From: a virus
Lineage: Duplodnaviria; Caudoviricetes
IMG/VR virus record: IMGVR_UViG_3300007513_000003
Direction: 5' to 3' (one strand)
DNA: 64,000 nt
A program made the position numbers and the translations under genes. The notes below the pieces were generated by a model that was not told the DNA's origin, did not search any database, and worked only from the letters and a program-made list of their open reading frames with translations. Of the stretch, positions 4,150 through 30,979 are shown piece after piece. Numbering within the stretch: position 1 is the stretch's first letter; each line of letters begins with the position of its first letter.

Positions 4150-5892
4150 TTATTCAATAGCAAATGAATTAGTAATATTTGCTATACCTTCCTGGGAAAA
4201 AGAATGATAAAGATATTGTTCAATAACAAATGAATGACTATATAATTTATTATTAATTTCAATGACGTCTATAAAAAATCCATACTTTTCATTGAAAAAG
4301 TTTAACTTTTTTACTAATTGGTCTGCCATAAACTTTAGAAAATAATAATGCTTATCTAGATAATACGAAAATGGTGCCAAGTCATAGCTATTTTGTTGCC
4401 TCTGCAATTGGTAATGGTTATACAGTGCCGATATGTTCCTAGATAAAAAATAATCTTGTATGTAATTTGTATCCATTATTAAATTTACATCTATCAAATC
4501 TAAATCTACATCTTTGTTTATAATACTTTTATATGTGCTATCAATGCCATTTAATGGAATTTCCTCGCCAAACGAATAACTTGAATTACTAAATTTAATA
4601 AATCTTATCTTAGATAAATTGTGTTTTTTTTGATAATTAATATCATAGGCTGGTGAATTTGGAAGTATTATCCAGGGATGAAGTAATACCAAGTCTATAT
4701 TAACGAGAGAAAATTCTTTAAACATATATATATTTTTTTCTAAGGTGGCGCCTGGTAAGCCATTTATAACCTCTGCTTTTATATATTGTCCTGCTTTTTT
4801 TAATGTTTTTATAAGTTCTTTATTTTCTTCCCAAGTAATACTTGGTCTATTAATATTATCCAAAACTTCTTTATCTATGTGTTGCAAAGAAACTTTAGAT
4901 ATGCTGCCTTTGGGTGTTTTTGAATTTTTGGCTTTATATAACTCAAGTTCTAATACACGATCTTTATGTAATTTTGCATTACTAGGATTTTCAAAATAAT
5001 GGTAATCATTACTAAAATTATCATGGCCAAACTTAACTACATCTACGTCATCTTTAAGTATTCCCACATTTGCATCCGTAATCATAAGAACTACATATTT
5101 AAGTTTTGATAAAAATTTTATTTCTTCCCTCCAATCCAATGTAGCTACATTAACTTTATGATGTAACCCAGAAGACCAGTCGCAAAAAGTACAAGCATAC
5201 GGACATCCTCGGACTCTTTCCCATGGAATAAATATAAACGAATCCGAATTACTGTCATTTTGTTTTGCATCCAGGCCTTTCGCCTCTAACCATTTTACTC
5301 TATTCTTTTTTGCAACTTCATACTCTTGTAGTAGATCTTGTTTTAAATCCAAGTAAGGATTATATGCTAGATGATCTTTAAATTTAAAAATCTTATACCG
5401 GGTTTTAAACTCTTTAGTTATTAAATTAGGAATAGTCTGCTCGTTTATTGGAGTAATAAAACTATCTAATAGCATTTGGAATGTTTCTTCACCATCTCCA
5501 TAACAAACATAGTCAAAATAAGGATTCTTTTTTGCGTATTCTGTGCCCAAAACATGTTCAACTTCAGGACCACCTGCTATTATAATACAATTAGGAAAGA
5601 CCTTTTTAATTTTCTTTGCTAATCGAATCGAATTATTAGAATTCCAAAGATAAAGGGTAAGACAAACAATATCAGGTTTTTTTTCTTTGATTACGTTAAA
5701 CGCTTTATTAACTTGGTTACCTTTTGTGTTGGGGCTGAACCCATTCTCATTCGGTAACCAGGTATAATTTTTATAATGTTTTCCTGTCTTTTTATAAAAA
5801 GATCTTAAACTATAAGAAACTAAACTGATTATGGGGCCGGTGTATCTCGACTGATCCGTGCCTGTATGTAAATTAATAAACTGCACTTTCAT
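4150..5892 (-). CDS. B12-binding-domain radical SAM enzyme
   Basis: N-terminal PDIVCLTLYLWN...IIIAGGPEV...GDGE cobalamin-binding-like domain, then ERVRGCPYACTFCDW (CxxxCxxC). Confidence 0.85.
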   Translation of the reverse strand: MKVQFINLHTGTDQSRYTGPIISLVSYSLRSFYKKTGKHYKNYTWLPNENGFSPNTKGNQVNKAFNVIKEKKPDIVCLTLYLWNSNNSIRLAKKIKKVFPNCIIIAGGPEVEHVLGTEYAKKNPYFDYVCYGDGEETFQMLLDSFITPINEQTIPNLITKEFKTRYKIFKFKDHLAYNPYLDLKQDLLQEYEVAKKNRVKWLEAKGLDAKQNDSNSDSFIFIPWERVRGCPYACTFCDWSSGLHHKVNVATLDWREEIKFLSKLKYVVLMITDANVGILKDDVDVVKFGHDNFSNDYHYFENPSNAKLHKDRVLELELYKAKNSKTPKGSISKVSLQHIDKEVLDNINRPSITWEENKELIKTLKKAGQYIKAEVINGLPGATLEKNIYMFKEFSLVNIDLVLLHPWIILPNSPAYDINYQKKHNLSKIRFIKFSNSSYSFGEEIPLNGIDSTYKSIINKDVDLDLIDVNLIMDTNYIQDYFLSRNISALYNHYQLQRQQNSYDLAPFSYYLDKHYYFLKFMADQLVKKLNFFNEKYGFFIDVIEINNKLYSHSFVIEQYLYHSFSQEGIANITNSFAIE

Positions 5893-6726: not shown

Positions 6727-7101
6727 ATGTCTAACATTTATCAAGAACTAACCGAGAAATACCCGTTTATAAGTTATATCAAGTATGTTGATAAAGAGTT
6801 TATTGGCATTATTTTAAATAAAGATGCATCAATTATTAGTATATATGACTATAATGCGCTTCCTAGCATTAAAGTAAAGCAAAAATTTTTAGAATTGGGA
6901 GATGTCTGGTGGTGGGAATCCAATAGATTATTTCCTATTAACGTTTTTCTTAAAAAAGAATTTGTACCTTTCAAACCTTATATTAAAACATTTATGGCGA
7001 AAGATGTAGAAATAGTCCATGGCCCATATGTTAGTATGAATGAACTTGCTCAACGCAGAACAAAACGTAGAAATATTCAATTAGTCCAAAAGGTAAAATA
7101 G
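6727..7101 (+). CDS. hypothetical protein
   Basis: 124-aa ORF divergent from the previous gene, fills the gap, globular composition. Confidence 0.7.
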   Translation: MSNIYQELTEKYPFISYIKYVDKEFIGIILNKDASIISIYDYNALPSIKVKQKFLELGDVWWWESNRLFPINVFLKKEFVPFKPYIKTFMAKDVEIVHGPYVSMNELAQRRTKRRNIQLVQKVK

Positions 7102-7106
7102 GTAAA

Positions 7107-8420
7107 ATGAGTGATAATGCACATCAAGTACACAATAGATCAATTATTAACACTAAACAGTCTAAATTACAATGTAGATTAAAATGGTCACTTAGCACCA
7201 TATTTTTAACTACAAATACGACTGCAAGTTGCCATAGATGTGATCATAATCCAATTACGGAAGATTTTAATTTTCATAATACTCATCAAAAGGTACATGC
7301 TCGATTGCAGATGTTGCGCGATGAGTGGCCAGAGTTAGGATGCGAACACTGTAGAGTTATTGAGCAGGCAGGAGGAATGAGTGATAGACTCTTACATGAC
7401 GACATGGGATTTGCCCCGTCATCTCCGCCTGAATTATTTGATAATCCAAATGCAGTTCATGTTACTCCAACGCAACTTGAAATATATTTCAGTAATCTTT
7501 GCCAATTATCCTGTACATATTGTGGTTCGTATTTTAGTAGTACATGGGAGGCAGAAGACAAAAAATATGGTGACATACATGATTTCATGTATCCTGATGA
7601 CCACAAGGCCGGCCGGCCTAATTATCAAGAACTTAAATATTTAGATAAAGTATTTGACTGGTTAGATAAAAATGGCCAGCACCTAAGATCATTATACATT
7701 TTAGGGGGAGAACCCTTTATACAACCACAGTCTGATCGTTTGTTAGATTTCATTGCAGGAAATGGTGATAAATTTAAAAATTTAGATTTATTCTTTTTTA
7801 GTAATCTATCAAGTGATAATATAGAACCAAAAATTATTAAATTAAAGCAACTTCTAGAAGAGGGTAGATTACACAATGCTCATATTGTCGGCAGTATTGA
7901 TTGTTGGGGTAAGGAAGCAGAGTATGTAAGATATGGACTAGATATAGAATTATTTGATAAAAACATGAAATATATAATCGACGCCGGACTTGACACTACA
8001 ATAAACATATGTTGGTCTCCTATATCTACTTTTACTATGCCTGATCTTATTGAAAAATATCAAGAATGGAATCAACGACATATTACGAGAGGGAAGGAAT
8101 GGGGTATGAATATTAGTTTAATGCAAGCCTCTGGTAAAGACTGGATGCACCCTTCAATATTTGGTCCGAAAATTTTAGATTGGGGATACAACCAATCAAT
8201 TGACATGTTAATAAATATTGCAAACGAAAATTCTGAAAGCACAACCAGGGAATCTGTCATTGAATATCTTGAAGGAATAAAAAAAGCAATTGAGTCGGAT
8301 ATTCCTAATAAAAAAGCACAACAGGAATTACATAGATATCTAACAGAACTGGATCGCAGGCGTGGAACAGATTATAGAGAACTTTTCCCTATAATCTACG
8401 AAGAGATTCATAAGCAATAA
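7107..8420 (+). CDS. radical SAM protein (twitch-associated type)
   Basis: FSNLCQLSCTYC..YFSSTW (CxxxCxxC), ILGGEP and GSIDC motifs; additional N-terminal Cys motifs (SCHRC, CEHC). Confidence 0.85.
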   Translation: MSDNAHQVHNRSIINTKQSKLQCRLKWSLSTIFLTTNTTASCHRCDHNPITEDFNFHNTHQKVHARLQMLRDEWPELGCEHCRVIEQAGGMSDRLLHDDMGFAPSSPPELFDNPNAVHVTPTQLEIYFSNLCQLSCTYCGSYFSSTWEAEDKKYGDIHDFMYPDDHKAGRPNYQELKYLDKVFDWLDKNGQHLRSLYILGGEPFIQPQSDRLLDFIAGNGDKFKNLDLFFFSNLSSDNIEPKIIKLKQLLEEGRLHNAHIVGSIDCWGKEAEYVRYGLDIELFDKNMKYIIDAGLDTTINICWSPISTFTMPDLIEKYQEWNQRHITRGKEWGMNISLMQASGKDWMHPSIFGPKILDWGYNQSIDMLINIANENSESTTRESVIEYLEGIKKAIESDIPNKKAQQELHRYLTELDRRRGTDYRELFPIIYEEIHKQ

Positions 8421-8424
8421 AACA

Positions 8425-8430
8425 TAAATA
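8425..8430 (+). promoter_or_regulatory. T4-type late promoter (TAAATA)
   Basis: ATAAATA 5 nt before ATG 8436; TAAATACAGTTATG is identical to the terminase start region. Confidence 0.7.
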
Positions 8431-8435
8431 CAGTT

Positions 8436-10061
8436 ATGCGTTTTAATGAATTTAAATTATTTGAAGCAAATTTATCGTTTGGTGATTTCCATCAAGCTGC
8501 TGAAGAACGATGGGATGTTTTTTTAAATCGCGTCAAAGGAAAGATTCCATGGGACGGCACAATTGCACCTACTTTGGGTGGGCAAGAATATGATTATCCC
8601 AAAGCAAGATCCGGAACGTATCCTTATAATATATACATTGGATACGCAAATGCCACCAGCCAAAGTAAACTTTTAAAGTCAATTCAATCAGGATCCTTCT
8701 ATGGCTATCTAGACGGTAAATCTTGGGTAGTACCGGTTTATGATCCTAAAACTAATACACAATTAGACAATTATAGAATTTCAAATCTCTTTAAAGATCA
8801 TCAATTTGCCGAACCACATCGTATTAAAAGTAAAGATCAAATCGCAAATTTTGGTAATTTAACAGAATCCTTGGCAGGTGCAGGTTTAACAGCAAAATTT
8901 ACTAAACGTGTACAAGGCGGAGTCCAGCCTATCGAAGTTAAAGACATTCTTAAAATAATTTCAAAATTAACAGTAGATAATAGTAGTAGTCAAGAAGTAA
9001 AAATTAATTCAAAAGAATTACACAAAGAAGACGTGGTGTATGCTTCTGCAGAATATAAAAGTAATTTACAAGATAAAATTGTTTGGAGAATTAAAACTCA
9101 AGAACAGGCTTTTAGGGAACTAGTAGCGATTGGAGAAGGGAAGCATTTAGATAATCCAAAACTATTAGGCTTGCTTGGGGCAGTTGCAAATTATGCTAAT
9201 TCTCGATTAATGACGCAATACTCTAGATTTTTTGCAACGAATCTCAAAGTTGATGAGATTATAGTAGATACCGACGGTATAGGTGGTGCCGCTTCCTTGC
9301 AGTCTGGAGGAGGTACTAAAGCAGACCTATTTATAGTTGCTAACGGAAAAAAACTTAGATATGCAAATCTTTCATTAAAAGCCACTAATCCAGATATTGG
9401 ACAACAAGCACTTGTTGGTAAACCACAAGGAAACCTAACAGCAGAAAAACTAAAAGATCATTTGTGGAACAATTTGATAACTTTATGGAAAGGGTTTGAC
9501 GATGGTACAAACTATATCAATGTTGAAAATATACTTTCAAAAGAAGAGTATTTAAATTCCATTGGTATCACTAGTGATATGGATTCTAATCAAATCGAAA
9601 AGGCAATAAACAGCCAATTACAAGCTAGCCAGAAAAAGGTTCGGCCCGGTATACAAAAAATGTTCAGCGCAGTTGCGAACAATATTAAACAAATTTGGCT
9701 TAAAAACGATGATTCACAATCAGAATACGATTTTATACAAGCACTGGTAAACTTTGTTGAATATCATGCAGCCAGAGAAGATAATGTAGAGTTAGTTGAT
9801 TTTAAGGCAACCGGCGATTATAGTGTCCATTCTTTTAAAAACTTATATAAACTACTTAAAGATATAGATTTTGATGTCGGGGAATATAAGACAAACGCGG
9901 GTAACGTAGGATTTAAAGTTTATGATATCAATAATCCAAAAGATGTATTGGTGTCTTTATATTTTCAGCCGAGAGCAGGGCAATCCACATATAAACTGGC
10001 TGTAAAAAAGGGACCTCTACTGAAGAAAGTTACTAATGTGAGTCACAAACGTAATAAGTAA
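8436..10061 (+). CDS. putative capsid-packaged protein with PD-(D/E)xK-like nuclease motif
   Basis: N-terminus MRFNEFKLFE-A resembles the T4 internal-protein targeting sequence; GTKADLFIV...NLSLKA resembles a D...(D/E/S)xK nuclease core. Confidence 0.45.
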   Translation: MRFNEFKLFEANLSFGDFHQAAEERWDVFLNRVKGKIPWDGTIAPTLGGQEYDYPKARSGTYPYNIYIGYANATSQSKLLKSIQSGSFYGYLDGKSWVVPVYDPKTNTQLDNYRISNLFKDHQFAEPHRIKSKDQIANFGNLTESLAGAGLTAKFTKRVQGGVQPIEVKDILKIISKLTVDNSSSQEVKINSKELHKEDVVYASAEYKSNLQDKIVWRIKTQEQAFRELVAIGEGKHLDNPKLLGLLGAVANYANSRLMTQYSRFFATNLKVDEIIVDTDGIGGAASLQSGGGTKADLFIVANGKKLRYANLSLKATNPDIGQQALVGKPQGNLTAEKLKDHLWNNLITLWKGFDDGTNYINVENILSKEEYLNSIGITSDMDSNQIEKAINSQLQASQKKVRPGIQKMFSAVANNIKQIWLKNDDSQSEYDFIQALVNFVEYHAAREDNVELVDFKATGDYSVHSFKNLYKLLKDIDFDVGEYKTNAGNVGFKVYDINNPKDVLVSLYFQPRAGQSTYKLAVKKGPLLKKVTNVSHKRNK

Positions 10062-10069
10062 GGTATATA

Positions 10070-10639
10070 TTACTTTAATAAATTCATATGCACAACCACT
10101 AAATGTGCATAACCTACTGAGTGACTCTTTTTAAAATAATACGAATTAGGATCAGTTGGTACTTTCCAAACTTCTTGCCCTATTTCCTTCCACGTTCTAT
10201 TTGCTAGATAGCGTTTAGCAGGGCGTATTACTGCTAAAAACATTGCCATTCTAGGAATACTGTCAGGCATCATCTTCTTTATTAAATCATAATGATTGCT
10301 GATATGTATAATCTGTTCAGTATATTCTCTTTCAGCAAGTCTTTCCCACGGTGGCTCTGTAAACATTAAATCTATTAAATGTTCTTCGCTTTGTACTTGG
10401 TTGTATATATTAACATTAAGTAAATCTAATTTAAAGTATCCTCGCTCTTCTGCGTCCTTATGATCGAGTGAGCAAATACCTTTTACTGGGTCTGTTGGAA
10501 CATCAGTAAAATAAACTCCAGTATTATGTTTTATTAGTTCATTATTGCGTATAATAGTCGCAGGAGTATGGTTTTGTAACTTTTCAAGTACTTCGTTTCT
10601 ATTCGCGAAGTCTATATCAATGTCAAATTTAAGGCTCAT
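10070..10639 (-). CDS. dnaE: miniature DNA polymerase III alpha (family C) core fragment
   Basis: Collinear DnaE motifs: FDIDIDF, HNTGVYF, GYFKLDLLNV, AVIRPA, YYFKKSHSVGY. ATG at 10639 (MSLKF) is the likely start. Confidence 0.8.
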   Translation of the reverse strand: MSLKFDIDIDFANRNEVLEKLQNHTPATIIRNNELIKHNTGVYFTDVPTDPVKGICSLDHKDAEERGYFKLDLLNVNIYNQVQSEEHLIDLMFTEPPWERLAEREYTEQIIHISNHYDLIKKMMPDSIPRMAMFLAVIRPAKRYLANRTWKEIGQEVWKVPTDPNSYYFKKSHSVGYAHLVVVHMNLLK

Positions 10640-10830
10640 ATTGGTTTCTTGCTCTTGGTACAATTGGTAATGCTAACTAAATTCATAATTGGACGAACAA
10701 TGTATTCATCATTACGTGATACATTTACGCCACCAGGACCACATTTATATCCTAATTTTTCACTTAACCATAACTTATTAAACCATTTATGGTGGTGTGG
10801 GTATTTTTTATAGGCTTCCGAATCATCCAA
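10636..10830 (-). pseudogene. probably truncated conserved phage protein
   Basis: FNKLWLSEKLGYKCGPGG...YIVRPIMNL matches the N-terminus of a phage family I recall as ~200 aa, but this ORF ends 13 residues later. Confidence 0.35.
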
Positions 10831-11008
10831 ATTTACTTTCCATCCATGCTATTTTATCTTTGAGGTGTAACTTTTCTTTCTTGAGTTCAGTTAACTTTGA
10901 GTGAGTTTCGCCTATGTCATTATTCTCTAGTTTCCAAATTATGTTATCTAATTCTTTATGCCGTTTCTTTAACAATTTTAAATCAAAATCTACTATATTA
11001 TCTGTCAT
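10823..11008 (-). CDS. DUF465/YdcH-like small coiled-coil protein
   Basis: LKKRHKELDNII...LKKEKLHLKDKI pattern. Confidence 0.65.
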   Translation of the reverse strand: MTDNIVDFDLKLLKKRHKELDNIIWKLENNDIGETHSKLTELKKEKLHLKDKIAWMESKFG

Positions 11009-11017
11009 CGTTTTCTC

Positions 11018-11719
11018 CTACATGGTTGCTTCACTTAAAATGTGCTTTGCCCATTCTACGTCCGCCGGAAACGCTTCGAAGCGTTTACTCCAGTATACCG
11101 GATCTATGAAGTCATTTATTAATCCTAACTGCTCGTCTGTCATTTTATCGAGCATATCCATTCCTGTATCGCTATGGTATATAACCCATGGACTTATTTT
11201 CCCATTTCTTATTAGTGCTACTGCTTTATTAAAACTTACAAATTTAAAAAAATGATTGAACGAAGAATTGTTATTATTTGCCCAATCCTCCATACTTAAT
11301 ATGCTACGCTCTAATGCATCTCTAGCATTTTCTGTTTTAATATATGGAAGTAAATATTCTTCATACACAGAATCCTTACACCAATTATCTAACTTAATGT
11401 TACTTTTAATAACATAATCAATAAAGTAATCCGGATTGATTACGTTGATGTTTATAATATGTTTGCCAAACTTTACAAACGCATTATAATATTGGCTACT
11501 AGCAAAGTGCTGGTAGTCTTTAAAGTTAGCAGAACCTTGTGTTAGTTCATAAAAACGTTTATAAGCAATGTATCCTATCTGTACATGCTTTTCGTCTTTC
11601 TGTCCGTGTCTACGTTTTTGTTCACATACATGAGCCGCTAGTGTTTTTTCTCTAGCAAAACTCCTGTTACAAAATTTACATTCATAGCCACTGTTTGATT
11701 GACTTATCGTCGTATCCAT
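11018..11719 (-). CDS. hypothetical protein with N-terminal C2H2/C2HC-type zinc finger
   Basis: YECKFCNRSFAREKTLAAHVCEQKRRH. Confidence 0.7.
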   Translation of the reverse strand: MDTTISQSNSGYECKFCNRSFAREKTLAAHVCEQKRRHGQKDEKHVQIGYIAYKRFYELTQGSANFKDYQHFASSQYYNAFVKFGKHIININVINPDYFIDYVIKSNIKLDNWCKDSVYEEYLLPYIKTENARDALERSILSMEDWANNNNSSFNHFFKFVSFNKAVALIRNGKISPWVIYHSDTGMDMLDKMTDEQLGLINDFIDPVYWSKRFEAFPADVEWAKHILSEATM

Positions 11720-12149
11720 GTTCTATTGCTAATTGTTTGAGTTCCTTTTTATCGCATACTTCTGCATATGCTTCTATGTCACTAAGTTTCCACGACGTAT
11801 ATATTTCTTTGAGAAACCTAGTTTTCTTATTATCTTTTGTTTCTTTTTTCATTGGCAAATACTTGCGTTTAAATGTGCCAATGCTTGGATTGATAGCACA
11901 CAGTATTTTGTAAGTTAAGTCGGGATGCTTACTTACCTCCCAAAAGTTAATGTTTAGTTCATTATTGGTTGCGCGAATCATATACTCCTGTAGATCATTG
12001 GAGCCTGTTGCACTTGCGGAATATTTAAGTTGTAAATATGGGCTAAACGCTTTCTTTTTTTCTGCGCTTAAATTCTTGTACCAGTTGTAATCCTTTTTAT
12101 CTATTGCGTTAAATATTTCGCTTAATGGTAATACTGCTGGCTTAGGCAT
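11682..12149 (-). CDS. gp62: probable clamp-loader small subunit (gp62-like)
   Basis: Size, FSPYLQLKY...N.NFW and KRKYLP basic patch, and location in the replication module. Confidence 0.45.
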   Translation of the reverse strand: MPKPAVLPLSEIFNAIDKKDYNWYKNLSAEKKKAFSPYLQLKYSASATGSNDLQEYMIRATNNELNINFWEVSKHPDLTYKILCAINPSIGTFKRKYLPMKKETKDNKKTRFLKEIYTSWKLSDIEAYAEVCDKKELKQLAIEHGYDDKSIKQWL

Positions 12150-12681
12150 TCTCGAGTCCTTTTATATACTCTTTTATTGTAACATTTTCTAAGTATTTGT
12201 CAAGTTCAAATGGGCAATTATTAGCAATTCTAACAATTCTGCCTTTTCCTCTGTATCTGTTACATACTGCTTTAATGTTATATTGTTCGATAATAAAACC
12301 GCCTGATTCTTTATTACCGCTATAATAGTTTTCTGTGTCGTTATATATATTATTTACCTTTCCACTTGTACTTTCTAAATCAAAACCAATCATATGTATT
12401 TCGTTATGTGTTCGCATTGCTATTATTAATGCAATTAATCCTGAATTCATCATTGGTTCATATTCAGGAATATCTTCTAAATAATGCACATTTGCTACAT
12501 TAACGCCACTTTGTTCAAACTCCTCACGCATTGGTGAATCAAGTATTATTAAGTGATCTGGAATAAACTCTCTATATAAAGCATTGCATCCATAAATTTC
12601 CCACTCGTTTCTTTTAAACAAGTTTAAATCTATTTGCCTACGGCTTTCGCCATTGCCTACTACTAATGCTTTCACCACCAT
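12142..12681 (-). CDS. DUF115/MptE-like nucleotide-sugar or pyrophosphokinase-fold protein
   Basis: VVGNGESR...YGCNALY...PDHL and SG..A...IHMIGFD motifs; ATG at 12681 likely. Confidence 0.55.
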   Translation of the reverse strand: MVVKALVVGNGESRRQIDLNLFKRNEWEIYGCNALYREFIPDHLIILDSPMREEFEQSGVNVANVHYLEDIPEYEPMMNSGLIALIIAMRTHNEIHMIGFDLESTSGKVNNIYNDTENYYSGNKESGGFIIEQYNIKAVCNRYRGKGRIVRIANNCPFELDKYLENVTIKEYIKGLENA

Positions 12682-12953
12682 CCTGCCGCTACAACTATTC
12701 CTATTACATTTACAACGGCAAAATAACCTGTTAGTAATACCGGCCAAGCAAGTTTACGTCTGTAATATGCATAAATTCCTGTTATTGATCCTATTAAAAA
12801 GGCCGGATATACTATTAACATATTAGGATCGTCTGCTGTTAATGCCAAATTTAAACTCGCGGCTACAGTAAAAATAAAACTTACTAATTCAAAATAAAAT
12901 GCTACCTTGTCACTGTAGTAAGACTCTTCCCAAAATTTTAAAATTTTACCCAT
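12672..12953 (-). CDS. small multi-pass membrane protein (PnuC-like)
   Basis: Three hydrophobic segments in 93 aa; start MGKILKFW at 12953. Confidence 0.55.
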   Translation of the reverse strand: MGKILKFWEESYYSDKVAFYFELVSFIFTVAASLNLALTADDPNMLIVYPAFLIGSITGIYAYYRRKLAWPVLLTGYFAVVNVIGIVVAAGWW

Positions 12954-14106
12954 TGCCAAATGTGCCAGAAAAGCCAAAGAAAATTCTATTTCTATTAAAG
13001 TCATCTGTAACTATATGAGAAAAATCCATCTCAAAGTTTAATGAGTTATCATCTTTCTCAAACAAATTGAATGTTTTTTTAGTTCCATACATTTGATAGT
13101 TGTCCGTCAAGTCAAACTTTAATTCAAAATCATAACTAGTGTGTAGGTAATAGGCGCCTATAGCAATGGCGGCTATACCTATGACTGCTAGAGCAGTATC
13201 AGAATCACTATTTTTCTTCTTAGGTGCATCTTCATGGCCACAGTATGTTATGTTTCTACCATTGCCTGTACCTACGGCACCCATAGAGCACATTAGATCA
13301 CCTAATGCTTTTGCTTGTGCCGACTCACTGAATAACGAATACTCAGAAACTACTACTGGTTTGCCCAGTTTCAATGCCTCAGTCAACATTCTTTTTGCTG
13401 TCTCTACATCTGATATGTAATCACCTGTAGTATGTCTACCTATTTGTAGATAGATGTAATCTGCATTGGTGTAGTATCGTGTATCGTGTTTGTATCCACC
13501 AACACCATCTGACAAATGTACCGCAACAGGTTTGTCTGTCTTTGACTTTATGAAAGCAACATAATCATTCACTTGTTCGGGTGACCAATACTCATCACAT
13601 TCTAGACAAGCAACATAGGCAGATGCTTGGTCATCATAGAGTCGGATGATTTTCTCCATGAATACCTTGTGGTGGGCGGCATTACCTTTCCAATCCCTGT
13701 GTGCAGATTCGGGTGTCATCCACAATACAGGTTTGAGTCCTGCTTGATTTAGTTCTATAAGTCTTTGCCTAAAGTTATCATTGGGGTCTACTATACCACC
13801 TGGCAAATGACCTCTAGAGGCACGGACATACATATCAATATGTGTATCACCGGTGTTGACTAGTCGTTGTCTAAAGTTTGCTCGTTCTGCATCTGTCCAA
13901 GTGTTAGACAAATACATTAAGGTTGTGTTAAACTTCTTTGACTGATCGCCAGTGTGTGGGCCTATCTTGCCTAATAGAAACGATGATCTTACGCCGTGAA
14001 GTGAATATGTTTTATCGTATGCTTGGCTTACACTTATACCTACTATGCTTAAACAAGAAAGATATATTACTAGTAGCGTGGGCCAAATAATTCGTCGAAT
14101 ATTCAT
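12946..14106 (-). CDS. exported TIM-barrel glycoside-hydrolase-like protein with C-terminal membrane anchor
   Basis: Signal-peptide-like N-terminus; CLECDEY and VVVSEY candidate catalytic Glu; hydrophobic helix followed by amphipathic beta strands at the C-terminus. Confidence 0.4.
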   Translation of the reverse strand: MNIRRIIWPTLLVIYLSCLSIVGISVSQAYDKTYSLHGVRSSFLLGKIGPHTGDQSKKFNTTLMYLSNTWTDAERANFRQRLVNTGDTHIDMYVRASRGHLPGGIVDPNDNFRQRLIELNQAGLKPVLWMTPESAHRDWKGNAAHHKVFMEKIIRLYDDQASAYVACLECDEYWSPEQVNDYVAFIKSKTDKPVAVHLSDGVGGYKHDTRYYTNADYIYLQIGRHTTGDYISDVETAKRMLTEALKLGKPVVVSEYSLFSESAQAKALGDLMCSMGAVGTGNGRNITYCGHEDAPKKKNSDSDTALAVIGIAAIAIGAYYLHTSYDFELKFDLTDNYQMYGTKKTFNLFEKDDNSLNFEMDFSHIVTDDFNRNRIFFGFSGTFGNG

Positions 14107-30025: not shown

Positions 30026-30979
30026 TTATTTAATCACTCCGCATACTTCTAAACATGTCTTTCGATACAATCCTTGGGAAAATTCTTTTGCTATGTTTAA
30101 AGTTTCAATATCATAAACTTCTTTTCTTTCATCTTCCCAAAAACAGCAAGGATGAATTACGCCATCTGCGCTTATAAAAAGTTGATAATGCTCATCATCG
30201 TCAGAGCACTGTAAATGATCACAAACATTTGGATCGACATAATTATTGGAAATAATCTTATCTAAATAGGCTTTTTTATCTACTTCATTTGAAATTGCTG
30301 TGTTTTCGAATACTTGAGTCTTTACTGAGTCATATGAATTATTATCTTCATCAGGAAACTCTAATAAATATCTTTCATTAGTTTTCCAATGAAATGCCTC
30401 TGGCACATAGGGCAATTCTGTATAAAATTCTGAAAACCCTAATTTATGAGACAATTCCCTTGCCTCTTCAACTTGGTGCTGGTTATGTTTAAACGTTAAA
30501 AATTTCCACACCGCGTGGCCGCCGGCGTCGATATATGCCTTTGCATTATCTATTATTTTATTAAAATTTGTGCCTTGTCTATAGATATGATTTGTATCCT
30601 CTAGTCCATCAATTGAGAAAGTAACTTCAAGTTGATTGCTTTTATAACTTCCTAAATCGGCCCACCAAGTCGTAGATCTTAAACTACCGCTTGTGTGCAT
30701 TGAAACAAAAAATTCTCTGTTATCGAATGATACCAATCTTAAAAGATCTTTAAGATGCTTATAGGCTGCAGGGTCTCCTCGATTTCCACATAAATGAATA
30801 TTTTTTAATATATTACATTTATTAACAAAATCAATAAAAAAATCTAGATCAAGATCAATTAATTCAAAATTGTCTTTAAGTCCATATCCATTATTATTGC
30901 GCGGACATCCTGGGCAACTAGCATTACATTTGGTTGTTGGCTCTACATGAACAATTGTTATTTTATTCCATATTTCCAT
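30026..30979 (-). CDS. radical SAM protein with SPASM/twitch-like C-terminus
   Basis: TTKCNASCPGC; CGNRGDP, FSIDG; C-terminal C...ISADGVIHPCC...C...C. Confidence 0.85.
   Translation of the reverse strand: MEIWNKITIVHVEPTTKCNASCPGCPRNNNGYGLKDNFELIDLDLDFFIDFVNKCNILKNIHLCGNRGDPAAYKHLKDLLRLVSFDNREFFVSMHTSGSLRSTTWWADLGSYKSNQLEVTFSIDGLEDTNHIYRQGTNFNKIIDNAKAYIDAGGHAVWKFLTFKHNQHQVEEARELSHKLGFSEFYTELPYVPEAFHWKTNERYLLEFPDEDNNSYDSVKTQVFENTAISNEVDKKAYLDKIISNNYVDPNVCDHLQCSDDDEHYQLFISADGVIHPCCFWEDERKEVYDIETLNIAKEFSQGLYRKTCLEVCGVIK

Follow-up and report, generated by a model that had tools for sequence, protein, structure and literature searches.

In a T4-type jumbo-phage replication and structural region, an open reading frame of only 189 codons was found to resemble the catalytic core of bacterial DnaE, the alpha subunit of Pol III. 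This raises the question of whether such a miniature family C polymerase gene is functional, what completes it and which role it has beside the other replication genes of the phage. The window analyzed here is the whole stretch of 64,000 nucleotides of viral DNA that contains this reading frame. The encoded protein is referred to as the C-fragment. Taken as a whole, it is considered highly probable that the C-fragment forms the C-terminal subunit of a minimal family C nucleotidyltransferase made of two polypeptides, a type characteristic of Rak2-like ("group 2.2") T4-type jumbo phages.

Genomic context and gene structure

The window is part of an IMG/VR viral contig (G000) of 201,690 bases, which is estimated to be 57% complete. 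The replication genes found in the window code for a DnaB-like helicase, a primase, a UvsW-type helicase, UvsX and a gp32-type single-stranded DNA-binding protein (SSB). The structural genes code for the large terminase, the tail tube, the tail sheath, a gp23-type major head protein and the prohead protease. The sequencing runs containing the stretch of the window at 100% were marine or seawater metagenomes. A near-identical isolate was not found in a megablast search of the region against phage genomes.

The C-fragment gene occupies positions 10070 to 10639 of the minus strand. Its reading frame is not interrupted and comprises 189 codons and a stop codon, in agreement with the intact frame of about 189 aa described in an earlier reading of the sequence alone (the sequence-only reading), and starts with an ATG at position 10639. 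Since all homologues begin with M-x-x-K/F-x-D-I-D-I-D and none uses the TTG located upstream at position 10663, the ATG was taken as the true translation start. On the basis of the ORF, the PHROG match, the AlphaFold2 fold match and the dN/dS values, the CDS was annotated as the C-terminal half of a split minimal Pol III alpha-like polymerase (phrog_11778).

Directly upstream on the same strand, a 64-aa ORF (10636–10830) was identified, the stop codon of which overlaps the ATG of the C-fragment gene (ATGA). This ORF is a truncated remnant of a 235-aa gene, with a partial match to phrog_3577 (positions 11–57 of 202). The full-length 235-aa version is present in a relative (L009:5304–6011), and the contig of a salt-marsh relative skips positions 10632–10836. 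Scans for promoters and terminators around the C-fragment gene resulted in counts that were not above those of shuffled sequence. One contig of 182 nt from a seawater RNA library falls inside the gene (10315–10496). RNA libraries can contain DNA, and the uncovered parts of the gene are therefore uninformative.

Homology and predicted fold of the C-fragment

The PHROG family phrog_11778, named "DNA polymerase", matches the ORF from end to end with an E-value of 3.1e-65 (residues 4–189 on profile positions 6–192 of 197). In addition, three PHROGs of full-length DnaE-type phage polymerases were found to match locally, among them phrog_405 with an E-value of 5e-7. The Pfam scan of the C-fragment revealed nothing relevant, and PF07733 (DNA_pol3_alpha) gave no match even at an E-value of 10. 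A profile search of the PDB sequences with the alignment of the C-fragment family likewise resulted in no match at an E-value of 10. As both of these searches were empty, the homology rests on the fold, on the collinearity of the motifs and on the PHROG profiles.

The AlphaFold2 model, which was built on 26 homologues, reached a pLDDT of 91.8. In the Foldseek search against the PDB, ranks 1 to 18 were all DnaE or PolC. Using VIA-align, the best 15 matches were again all DnaE or PolC, and the next unrelated fold followed at a Z-score of 3.8. Residues 1–189 of the model were aligned with residues 397–776 of E. coli Pol III alpha (Z 8.8, rmsd 6.6, 184 aligned residues). The model was also aligned with Taq 458–833 (Z 8.4), M. 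tuberculosis DnaE1 416–803 (Z 8.3) and PolC 968–1291 (PDB 3F2B; Z 7.9, rmsd 6.5, 188 aligned residues). Local profile alignments (HMM, hhalign) of the C-fragment with E. coli DnaE covered the alpha residues 538–559, 540–641 and 740–766; these are individually weak and collinear. According to the predicted structure, the C-fragment thus comprises the "middle finger" of Pol III alpha and the latter half of its Pol-beta-like palm (E. coli 397–776). The collinearity of its motifs with bacterial DnaE, which had been claimed from the sequence, was borne out by the fold match, the PHROG profiles and the local alignments.

Conservation of the active site

For the analysis of conservation, an alignment of 26 homologues with 57–85% identity to the C-fragment was used. 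A total of 36 columns were found to be invariant, including every active-site counterpart. The residues D6, D8, D10, K70, D72, R139, P140, K142, Y167, F169, H173 and Y177 are invariant or nearly so, which applies to all of the motifs noticed before (Asp triad, RP and F.KSH..Y). A loss of the Asp triad among the homologues, named in advance as a finding that would speak against a polymerase core, was not observed, the triad being invariant.

The codons of D6-I-D8-I-D10 are located at positions 10610–10624 (all motif coordinates are on the minus strand). D6 and D8 are the invariant counterparts of the catalytic residues D401 and D403 on the second palm strand, where the alignment of the model starts at alpha 397. 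The codons of K70-L-D72 (10424–10432), equally invariant, correspond to K553 and to the third catalytic aspartate D555 according to the HMM and hhalign alignments with alpha 538–559. The exchange K553A abolishes the activity of E. coli Pol III (bioRxiv 10.64898/2026.06.29.735100).

The residues K37-H38 of the motif KHNTGVY (10526–10531) are the probable counterpart of E. coli K510-H511. Judged at the level of the motif, KHNTGVY probably corresponds to KHAGGVV at alpha 510–516, a primer contact. H38 is invariant and K37 is conserved in at least 90% of the 26 homologues.

The next motif, R139-P140-A-K142-R143, is encoded at positions 10211–10225. Here R139-P140 correspond to R639-P640, which contact the templating base, and hhalign pairs IRPA with FRPG at alpha 638–641. 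R139, P140 and K142 are invariant, and R143 is conserved in at least 90% of the 26 homologues. The last motif, Y167-Y-F169-K-K171-S-H173 (10121–10141), was aligned on Y754-G-F756-N-K758-S-H760 by the HMM profile (154–179 on alpha 740–766) and provides the counterparts of Y754, F756, K758 and H760. Those of Y754, F756 and H760 are invariant.

The relevance of these positions can be read from the cryo-EM structure of E. coli Pol III (bioRxiv 10.64898/2026.06.29.735100). There, the residues within 4 Å of the incoming dGTP are R362-G363-S364 of the GS motif, D401 and D403, Y754, F756, N757 and H760 of a helix-loop-helix, and R390, R709, K714 and K715. The Y754–H760 loop forms the roof of the nascent base-pair pocket and a steric gate against rNTPs, with Y754 stacked on the base and H760 as the residue that excludes ribonucleotides. 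The templating base is within 4 Å of R639, P640, G641 and G753. For R709, K714 and K715, the index-finger residues that hold the triphosphate, the C-fragment appears to offer only candidate counterparts, namely K142 and R143, which may stand in for the lost Arg/Lys residues of the index finger.

Missing domains

The GRGS motif, the PHP domain and everything before alpha 397 and after alpha 776 were found to be absent from the C-fragment ORF. Within these boundaries, VIA-align indicated a deletion of about 190 residues. The thumb (alpha 433–510) and the index finger (about 642–753) are each reduced to about 25 residues; in a wider delimitation (E. coli 407–509), the first of these shortened segments comprises the remaining part of the large palm as well as the thumb. 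The ring and little fingers and the clamp-binding, OB and tau-binding parts are absent from the 189-aa ORF. For the PHP domain, most of the thumb and fingers, the clamp-binding and OB regions and the GRGS motif, the absence from the ORF had already been recognized in the sequence-only reading and was confirmed.

The search for PF02811 (PHP) and PF17657 (Pol III finger) gave no match in G000 or in the record of the relative G001. Since the ORF does not contain the GRGS motif, the C-fragment alone is not a complete family C core. With the thumb, the clamp-binding region and most of the fingers lost, efficient templated synthesis is uncertain.

Purifying selection and family size

The dN/dS ratios were 0.04 to 0.12 where dS was not saturated, both between the gene of the window and relatives with 80–94% identity and among these relatives. 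In the sole pair with a ratio above 1, there are hardly any differences. The C-fragment gene is therefore under strong purifying selection.

At least 7,988 homologous clusters (90% identity) match the C-fragment at an E-value of 0.001 or lower. Among the 120 matches listed, the length ranged between 141 and 202 aa, and all but one were between 186 and 202 aa. An exhaustive search of the 50% representatives resulted in 396 clusters, the complete members of which have a length of about 190 aa. Orthologues were identified in 96 phage records, all of Rak2-like jumbo phages, and 95 of these are covered to at least 80%.

These data bear on the idea that a full-length dnaE was acquired from a host and is now decaying, with the ORF as its relic. 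Only about one sixth of DnaE is covered by the ORF and Pfam does not recognise it, which would fit such an origin, but the low dN/dS values, the invariant active-site residues and the confident and compact model are at odds with decay. Moreover, the homologues number in the thousands and are of constant length without full-length intermediates, and the synteny is kept from the marine phage to phages of Sinorhizobium and Pseudomonas. This origin is so improbable that it can practically be dismissed. The earlier statement that the gene is not a simple decay product holds in view of the dN/dS values, the constant length of about 190 aa and the invariant Asp triad. Neutral evolution and a deletion relative to a full-length dnaE of close relatives had been named as possible counter-evidence. 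Neither was found: no full-length dnaE was detected in close relatives, and the homologues are about 190 aa long throughout.

A probable partner protein with the GRGS motif

A natural fusion protein (P0157, 375 aa), known from a single metagenomic contig of 2.4 kb, contains the motif GVGRGSS in its first 190 residues and a match to the C-fragment at residues 191–370. The two parts are joined in the expected order, N before C, and a PF07733 match at residues 97–207 crosses the junction with 59.6 bits (cut-off 23.9). Searching with the N-terminal part of this protein led to a family of stand-alone proteins of 163–185 aa (phrog_11127), here referred to as the N-fragment, with an invariant GVGRGSS and the C-terminal residues E-F-L-K/R. 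The N-fragment passes the Pfam threshold for PF07733 with 42.2 bits (cut-off 23.9). Its profile matched only Pol III alpha chains among the PDB sequences (residues about 320–393, E-value 4e-7), and hhalign assigned it to E. coli alpha 321–393 with a probability of 95%. Both halves are also collinear on the full-length DnaE-type family phrog_405, where the N-fragment is found at positions 295–431 and the C-fragment at positions 773–809 of 1,190.

The N-fragment ends at alpha 393 and the alignment of the C-fragment starts at alpha 397, which means that the gene is divided within the loop that directly precedes the strand with the Asp pair. In isolates, the N-fragment was identified in the same Rak2-like phages as the C-fragment, with a gap of 31 kb (121Q), 44 kb (PA5oct) and 182 kb (Atu_ph07) between the two genes. 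It is also present in G001, at about 205 kb from the C-fragment gene, and in a further relative (G004).

Multimer modelling of the fragments, a check proposed in the sequence-only reading, was carried out with the N-fragment of G001, the closest long relative, and the C-fragment of the window, together with three controls. The model of the complex scored 0.92, compared to 0.00 for the best of the three controls. This mark was reached by 58 out of 80 solved complexes and by 2 out of 110 mismatched pairs. At least 96% of the contacts were in common between the runs, and the pLDDT of the partner was 90 or higher. In the model, the strand preceding GVGRGS (N-fragment residues 133–136) touches residues 9–11 of the C-fragment, by which the palm sheet is rebuilt. 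The docking result may reflect the likeness to the intact DnaE domain of solved structures, so that it supports binding without proving it.

According to the proposed mechanism, the N-fragment (about 170 aa) would supply the first palm strand and the nucleotide-binding GRGS motif (alpha 321–393), which for this phage is deduced from its relatives. The two chains are predicted to pack strand against strand, and one active site of about 360 residues would be rebuilt in this way. Intein trans-splicing of the halves, as in cyanobacterial dnaE, was rejected, as no surplus residues are present in either half at the junction. Since there is no room for intein segments, the association must be non-covalent. 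The suggestion that the polymerase is completed by a GRGS-bearing fragment encoded elsewhere was thereby strengthened, given the co-occurrence of the two halves, their fusion in P0157 and the predicted docking.

Position of the partner and family B polymerase genes

The N-fragment was not found in the record of 201,690 bases by tblastn with the fusion protein, by an unfiltered search with the N-fragment HMM or by a genome search. A scan of this record for the GRGS motif resulted in a sole match, the GEGRGS of the portal protein. PF07733 and PF00136 (family B polymerase) were without a match in the window and in the 201-kb record. At a completeness of 57%, absence from the record is uninformative as to the gene content of the phage itself.

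The relative G001 (322,647 bases, 90% complete) carries a C-fragment with 81% identity at about 43.6 kb, an ORF of 884 aa coding for a family B polymerase (PolB) at about 206 kb and the N-fragment at 248814–249320. The 884-aa ORF was identified in G001 and G002, the two longest close relatives. In the blastn comparison, the region 1–170 kb of G000 was collinear with G001 from 176 to 1 kb, and the region 175–200 kb was collinear with G001 from 322.5 to 284.5 kb. Thus, G000 lacks exactly the segment of 108 kb (176–284 kb of G001) that holds the PolB gene and the N-fragment. As the PolB gene of G001 is located in this segment, the missing gp43 is most probably a contig-end effect. The N-fragment and PolB genes of the phage studied here would accordingly lie outside the 201-kb contig, as judged from the relative with 81% identity.

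The mini-DnaE could in principle be the only replicative polymerase of the phage and replace gp43, since no PF00136 match was obtained in the window or the 201-kb record. This is very improbable in view of the incompleteness of the record, which lacks the very segment that carries PolB in a collinear relative, of the PolB ORF in both long relatives and of the report of PolB in all group 2.2 phages (Iyer et al., 2021; PMC7824862). In all probability, the mini-DnaE is thus present beside a family B replicase and is no replacement for gp43. The observation that no gp43-type polymerase is encoded in the window is therefore correct as such, and is most probably an effect of incompleteness, the PolB of the relatives being encoded in the missing segment. 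Similarly, the proposed search of the rest of the genome for gp43 and a GRGS fragment yielded neither in the 201-kb record and both in G001.

Conserved neighbours of the two halves

Upstream of the C-fragment gene and on the same strand, a gene for a zinc-finger protein of 233 aa (11018–11719, minus strand; C-x2-C...H-x-C, all-helical body) was assigned to phrog_11058 with an E-value of 7e-68. A homologue was found just upstream of the C-fragment on the same strand in 78 out of 81 loci, and in all 67 loci with enough flanking sequence. Its model reached a pLDDT of 91. As a missing DnaE domain the protein was rejected: Foldseek gave no match at an E-value of 0.001 or lower, and the best match of the VIA-wide search (Z 4.7) was tied with unrelated entries. 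The comparison with the C-domain of T4 gp59 (Z 4.2, rmsd 3.5, 93 aligned residues) was indistinguishable from noise, and PF08994 had no match in the 201-kb record. In the Atlas, only viral hypothetical C2H2 proteins were found as relatives.

The following gene (11682–12149, minus strand) codes for a 155-aa protein (phrog_11758) and is probably the one that had been called "gp62-like". It is conserved in 76 out of 81 loci. One GenBank record labels a homologue as "sliding-clamp-loader small subunit", and no other label supports gp62. The assignment as gp62 was rejected, as the protein has no sequence likeness to any solved structure, including clamp-loader subunits.

Across the 81 related loci, the wider order comprises the UvsW-type helicase further upstream, the 155-aa protein, the zinc-finger protein and the C-fragment, followed downstream by primase/DnaB. 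The order of the 155-aa, zinc-finger and C-fragment genes was also found in Phosso and is consistent with the positions of the matches in PA5oct. The N-fragment in turn heads a string of genes in G001 and 121Q, which consists of the N-fragment, a small ORF, a GroES-like co-chaperonin, a small ORF and a gp44-like clamp loader. Links of the split-polymerase genes to clamp-loader genes are thus suggestive.

The zinc-finger protein, the 155-aa protein or both might form a third subunit that supplies the lost DNA binding or the coupling to the clamp. The same-strand order of the three genes in 76–78 out of 81 loci, which extends to the distant phages PA5oct and Phosso, is in favor of this role, as is the position of the N-fragment on the same strand and a few genes from the gp44-like clamp loader in G001 and 121Q. 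Proximity is, however, expected in a replication module, and neither the zinc-finger model, which lacks a convincing match to a DnaE domain or another solved fold, nor the 155-aa protein, which lacks likeness to solved clamp-loader subunits, fits the part. A third subunit of this kind is regarded as quite unlikely. The proposal that these neighbours complete the polymerase was consequently not upheld, as the fold and sequence searches gave no sign that they supply the missing DnaE domains, though they are strongly conserved neighbours.

A related view goes further and is held to be just as doubtful. It assumes that the two chains (about 170 and 190 aa) are a self-sufficient DNA polymerase that reads a template and is specific for dNTPs, wired to the sliding clamp through neighbours that replace the thumb, fingers and clamp-binding domains. 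The wiring would be provided by the zinc-finger and gp62-like proteins beside the C half and by the gp44-like clamp loader near the N half. If true, the pair of N- and C-fragment would be the smallest family C polymerase known.

Proposed function of the predicted heterodimer

The residues that read the template and the sugar are conserved, and for this reason the heterodimer is interpreted as a template-directed and dNTP-specific enzyme. We lean towards a DNA polymerase of low intrinsic processivity that acts beside the family B replicase and is not the replicase itself. Its tasks would be repair, gap filling, primer extension or one-strand synthesis.

The Pol-beta-like superfamily includes many non-polymerase transferases, and the split enzyme might accordingly act as a nucleotidyltransferase in a task different from the templated synthesis of DNA. 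Untemplated 3' tailing, the modification of primer or RNA ends and the formation of a nucleotide signal or a counter-defence product are examples of such tasks. The missing thumb, index, ring and little fingers, clamp-binding and OB parts would be compatible with this activity, and the phage group already has a family B replicase, as seen from the PolB of the relatives. Nevertheless, the counterparts of R639-P640, Y754 and H760 are invariant, which one would not expect of an enzyme that works without a template or uses NTPs, and the gene is located within a conserved replication module that extends from the UvsW-type helicase to primase/DnaB. A transferase of this type is therefore considered rather unlikely, and the templated DNA polymerase is the preferred reading.

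Comparison with known systems

From sequence analysis, a Pol III alpha of this split and minimal type has been described for the Rak2-like group 2.2 jumbo phages (Iyer et al., 2021; Viruses 13:63). It is accompanied by a family B polymerase, and a role in one-strand synthesis or repair was proposed (Iyer et al., 2021). A full-text search of the literature revealed no biochemical work on any member, the computational description of 2021 being the only one. In the PHROGs and several GenBank records, both halves are already named DNA polymerase or Pol III alpha. The C-fragment is the orthologue of this published protein in an uncultivated marine jumbo phage and is in this sense already known. It belongs to the same family (phrog_11778), with orthologues of 39–48% identity in Phosso, Atu_ph07, PA5oct and 121Q, and, as judged from its relatives, would share the two distant genes and the co-occurrence of a family B polymerase. 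There is no difference in kind apart from the origin of the present copy from an uncultivated marine phage. What is added here to the description by Iyer et al. is the break point (alpha 393/397), the residue-level map of the nucleotide pocket, the natural fusion, the docking model, the dN/dS values, the size of the metagenomic family and the conserved neighbours of each half.

The phage form is similar to E. coli DnaE (1,160 aa; PDB 2HNH, 5FKV) in the Pol-beta-like palm with D401/D403/D555, K553, R639-P640 and Y754-x-F756-x-K758-x-H760, which are found in the same order and in the same predicted fold. In contrast to E. coli, its palm is divided over two polypeptides of about 360 aa in total, and the PHP domain, the thumb, the index, ring and little fingers, the beta-clamp-binding motif, the OB domain and the tau-binding domain are missing. 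With the Gram-positive PolC (PDB 3F2B) it shares the core of palm and middle finger, whereas the inserted exonuclease and the PHP, OB and duplex-binding domains of PolC are all absent in the C-fragment.

In cyanobacteria, dnaE is also encoded by two distant genes (DnaE-n and DnaE-c of Synechocystis and Nostoc), the long halves of which carry intein halves and are ligated to a full-length chain. The origin of a family C polymerase from two distant genes is common to both systems. The phage protein is split inside the palm, whereas the cyanobacterial split is located in the fingers. In the phage, the alignment of the N half with alpha extends up to the final residue, and only five residues precede the Asp pair in the C half.

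Implications

The practical value of these results is a firm annotation of the gene, which codes for the C half of the split Pol III alpha already published; no new replicase was found. From the family it can be seen how small a part of Pol III alpha may suffice for a working active site, as about 360 residues keep all contacts of the E. coli enzyme to the incoming nucleotide and the templating base except for the Arg/Lys residues of the index finger. If active, the enzyme would be a tractable minimal model for the catalysis and evolution of family C polymerases, as argued by Iyer et al. (2021). It would then also represent a second polymerase beside the family B replicase in very abundant marine and enteric jumbo phages.

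Conserved and variable neighbors of the mini-DnaE

In 78 of the 81 related loci, the upstream neighbor of the mini-DnaE was the gene of a 233-aa zinc-finger protein (11018-11719, minus strand). The protein, which forms a virus-only family and whose gene sits inside the replication module, consists of an N-terminal C-x2-C...H-x-C zinc finger and an all-helical body that was confidently modeled (pLDDT 91). Comparison of the model with solved folds gave no convincing match; the T4 helicase loader gp59 matched weakly through its C-domain (Z 4.2), at a level indistinguishable from noise. Between this gene and the mini-DnaE, a coiled-coil ORF of 61 aa (10823-11008, minus strand) was identified, which is kept in 15 related loci and may resemble the small proteins of the DUF465/YdcH type.

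Directly upstream of the mini-DnaE lies a 64-aa ORF (10636-10830, minus strand) with a partial match to phrog_3577, its stop codon overlapping the start codon of the mini-DnaE in the sequence ATGA. It is what remains, after truncation, of the N-terminal part of a 235-aa gene, of which the closest long relative, G001, has an intact copy (L009:5304-6011). In the contig of a salt-marsh relative, the position corresponding to 10632 is joined to that of 10836, so the ORF is absent there. It looks like a lineage-specific insertion in decay in the phage studied here.

A further variable insert inside the replication module is the region 12142-14106 (minus strand), which encodes ORFs of 201, 110 and 386 aa and is flanked by conserved genes of 155 and 166 aa. 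These three ORFs are absent from most related loci (present in 1-15 of 81). For the 201-aa protein, a weak, sub-threshold match to a sialyltransferase family was found.

Convergent to the mini-DnaE is a plus-strand block (6727-10061). It includes the second of the three radical-SAM-type genes in the window (7107-8420) and a 541-aa gene (8436-10061), for which no homologue was found among the 81 related loci; in G001, a 591-aa ORF directly follows the mini-DnaE on the opposite strand. The other two radical-SAM-type genes are located on the minus strand at 4150-5892, which also encodes a B12-binding domain, and at 30026-30979.

Genome size

Both ends of the 322.6-kb G001 are spanned without a break by the phage's own record, G000, at about 170-175 kb: its 168-170 kb region matches G001 at about 1-2.8 kb, and its position 175 kb matches G001 at 322.5 kb. 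G001 is therefore a nearly complete genome in circularly permuted form. The genome of the phage studied here is probably similar in size (about 320 kb).

Context of the two polymerase halves

The marine phage G001 (L098:6580-9320) and coliphage 121Q (L105:6986-9550) share a gene string in the order N-fragment, small ORF, GroES-like co-chaperonin, small ORF and gp44-like clamp loader. The C half comes after a possible gp62-like gene, and each half of the split polymerase may therefore have one clamp-loader subunit gene beside it.

The N and C halves occur naturally fused in frame in the protein P0157 (375 aa; L104:1066-2193). Its source is a single ENA metagenome contig of 2.4 kb, and the fusion may be the product of a chimeric assembly. 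If genuine, P0157 would be a handy single-chain form of the split polymerase for experiments.
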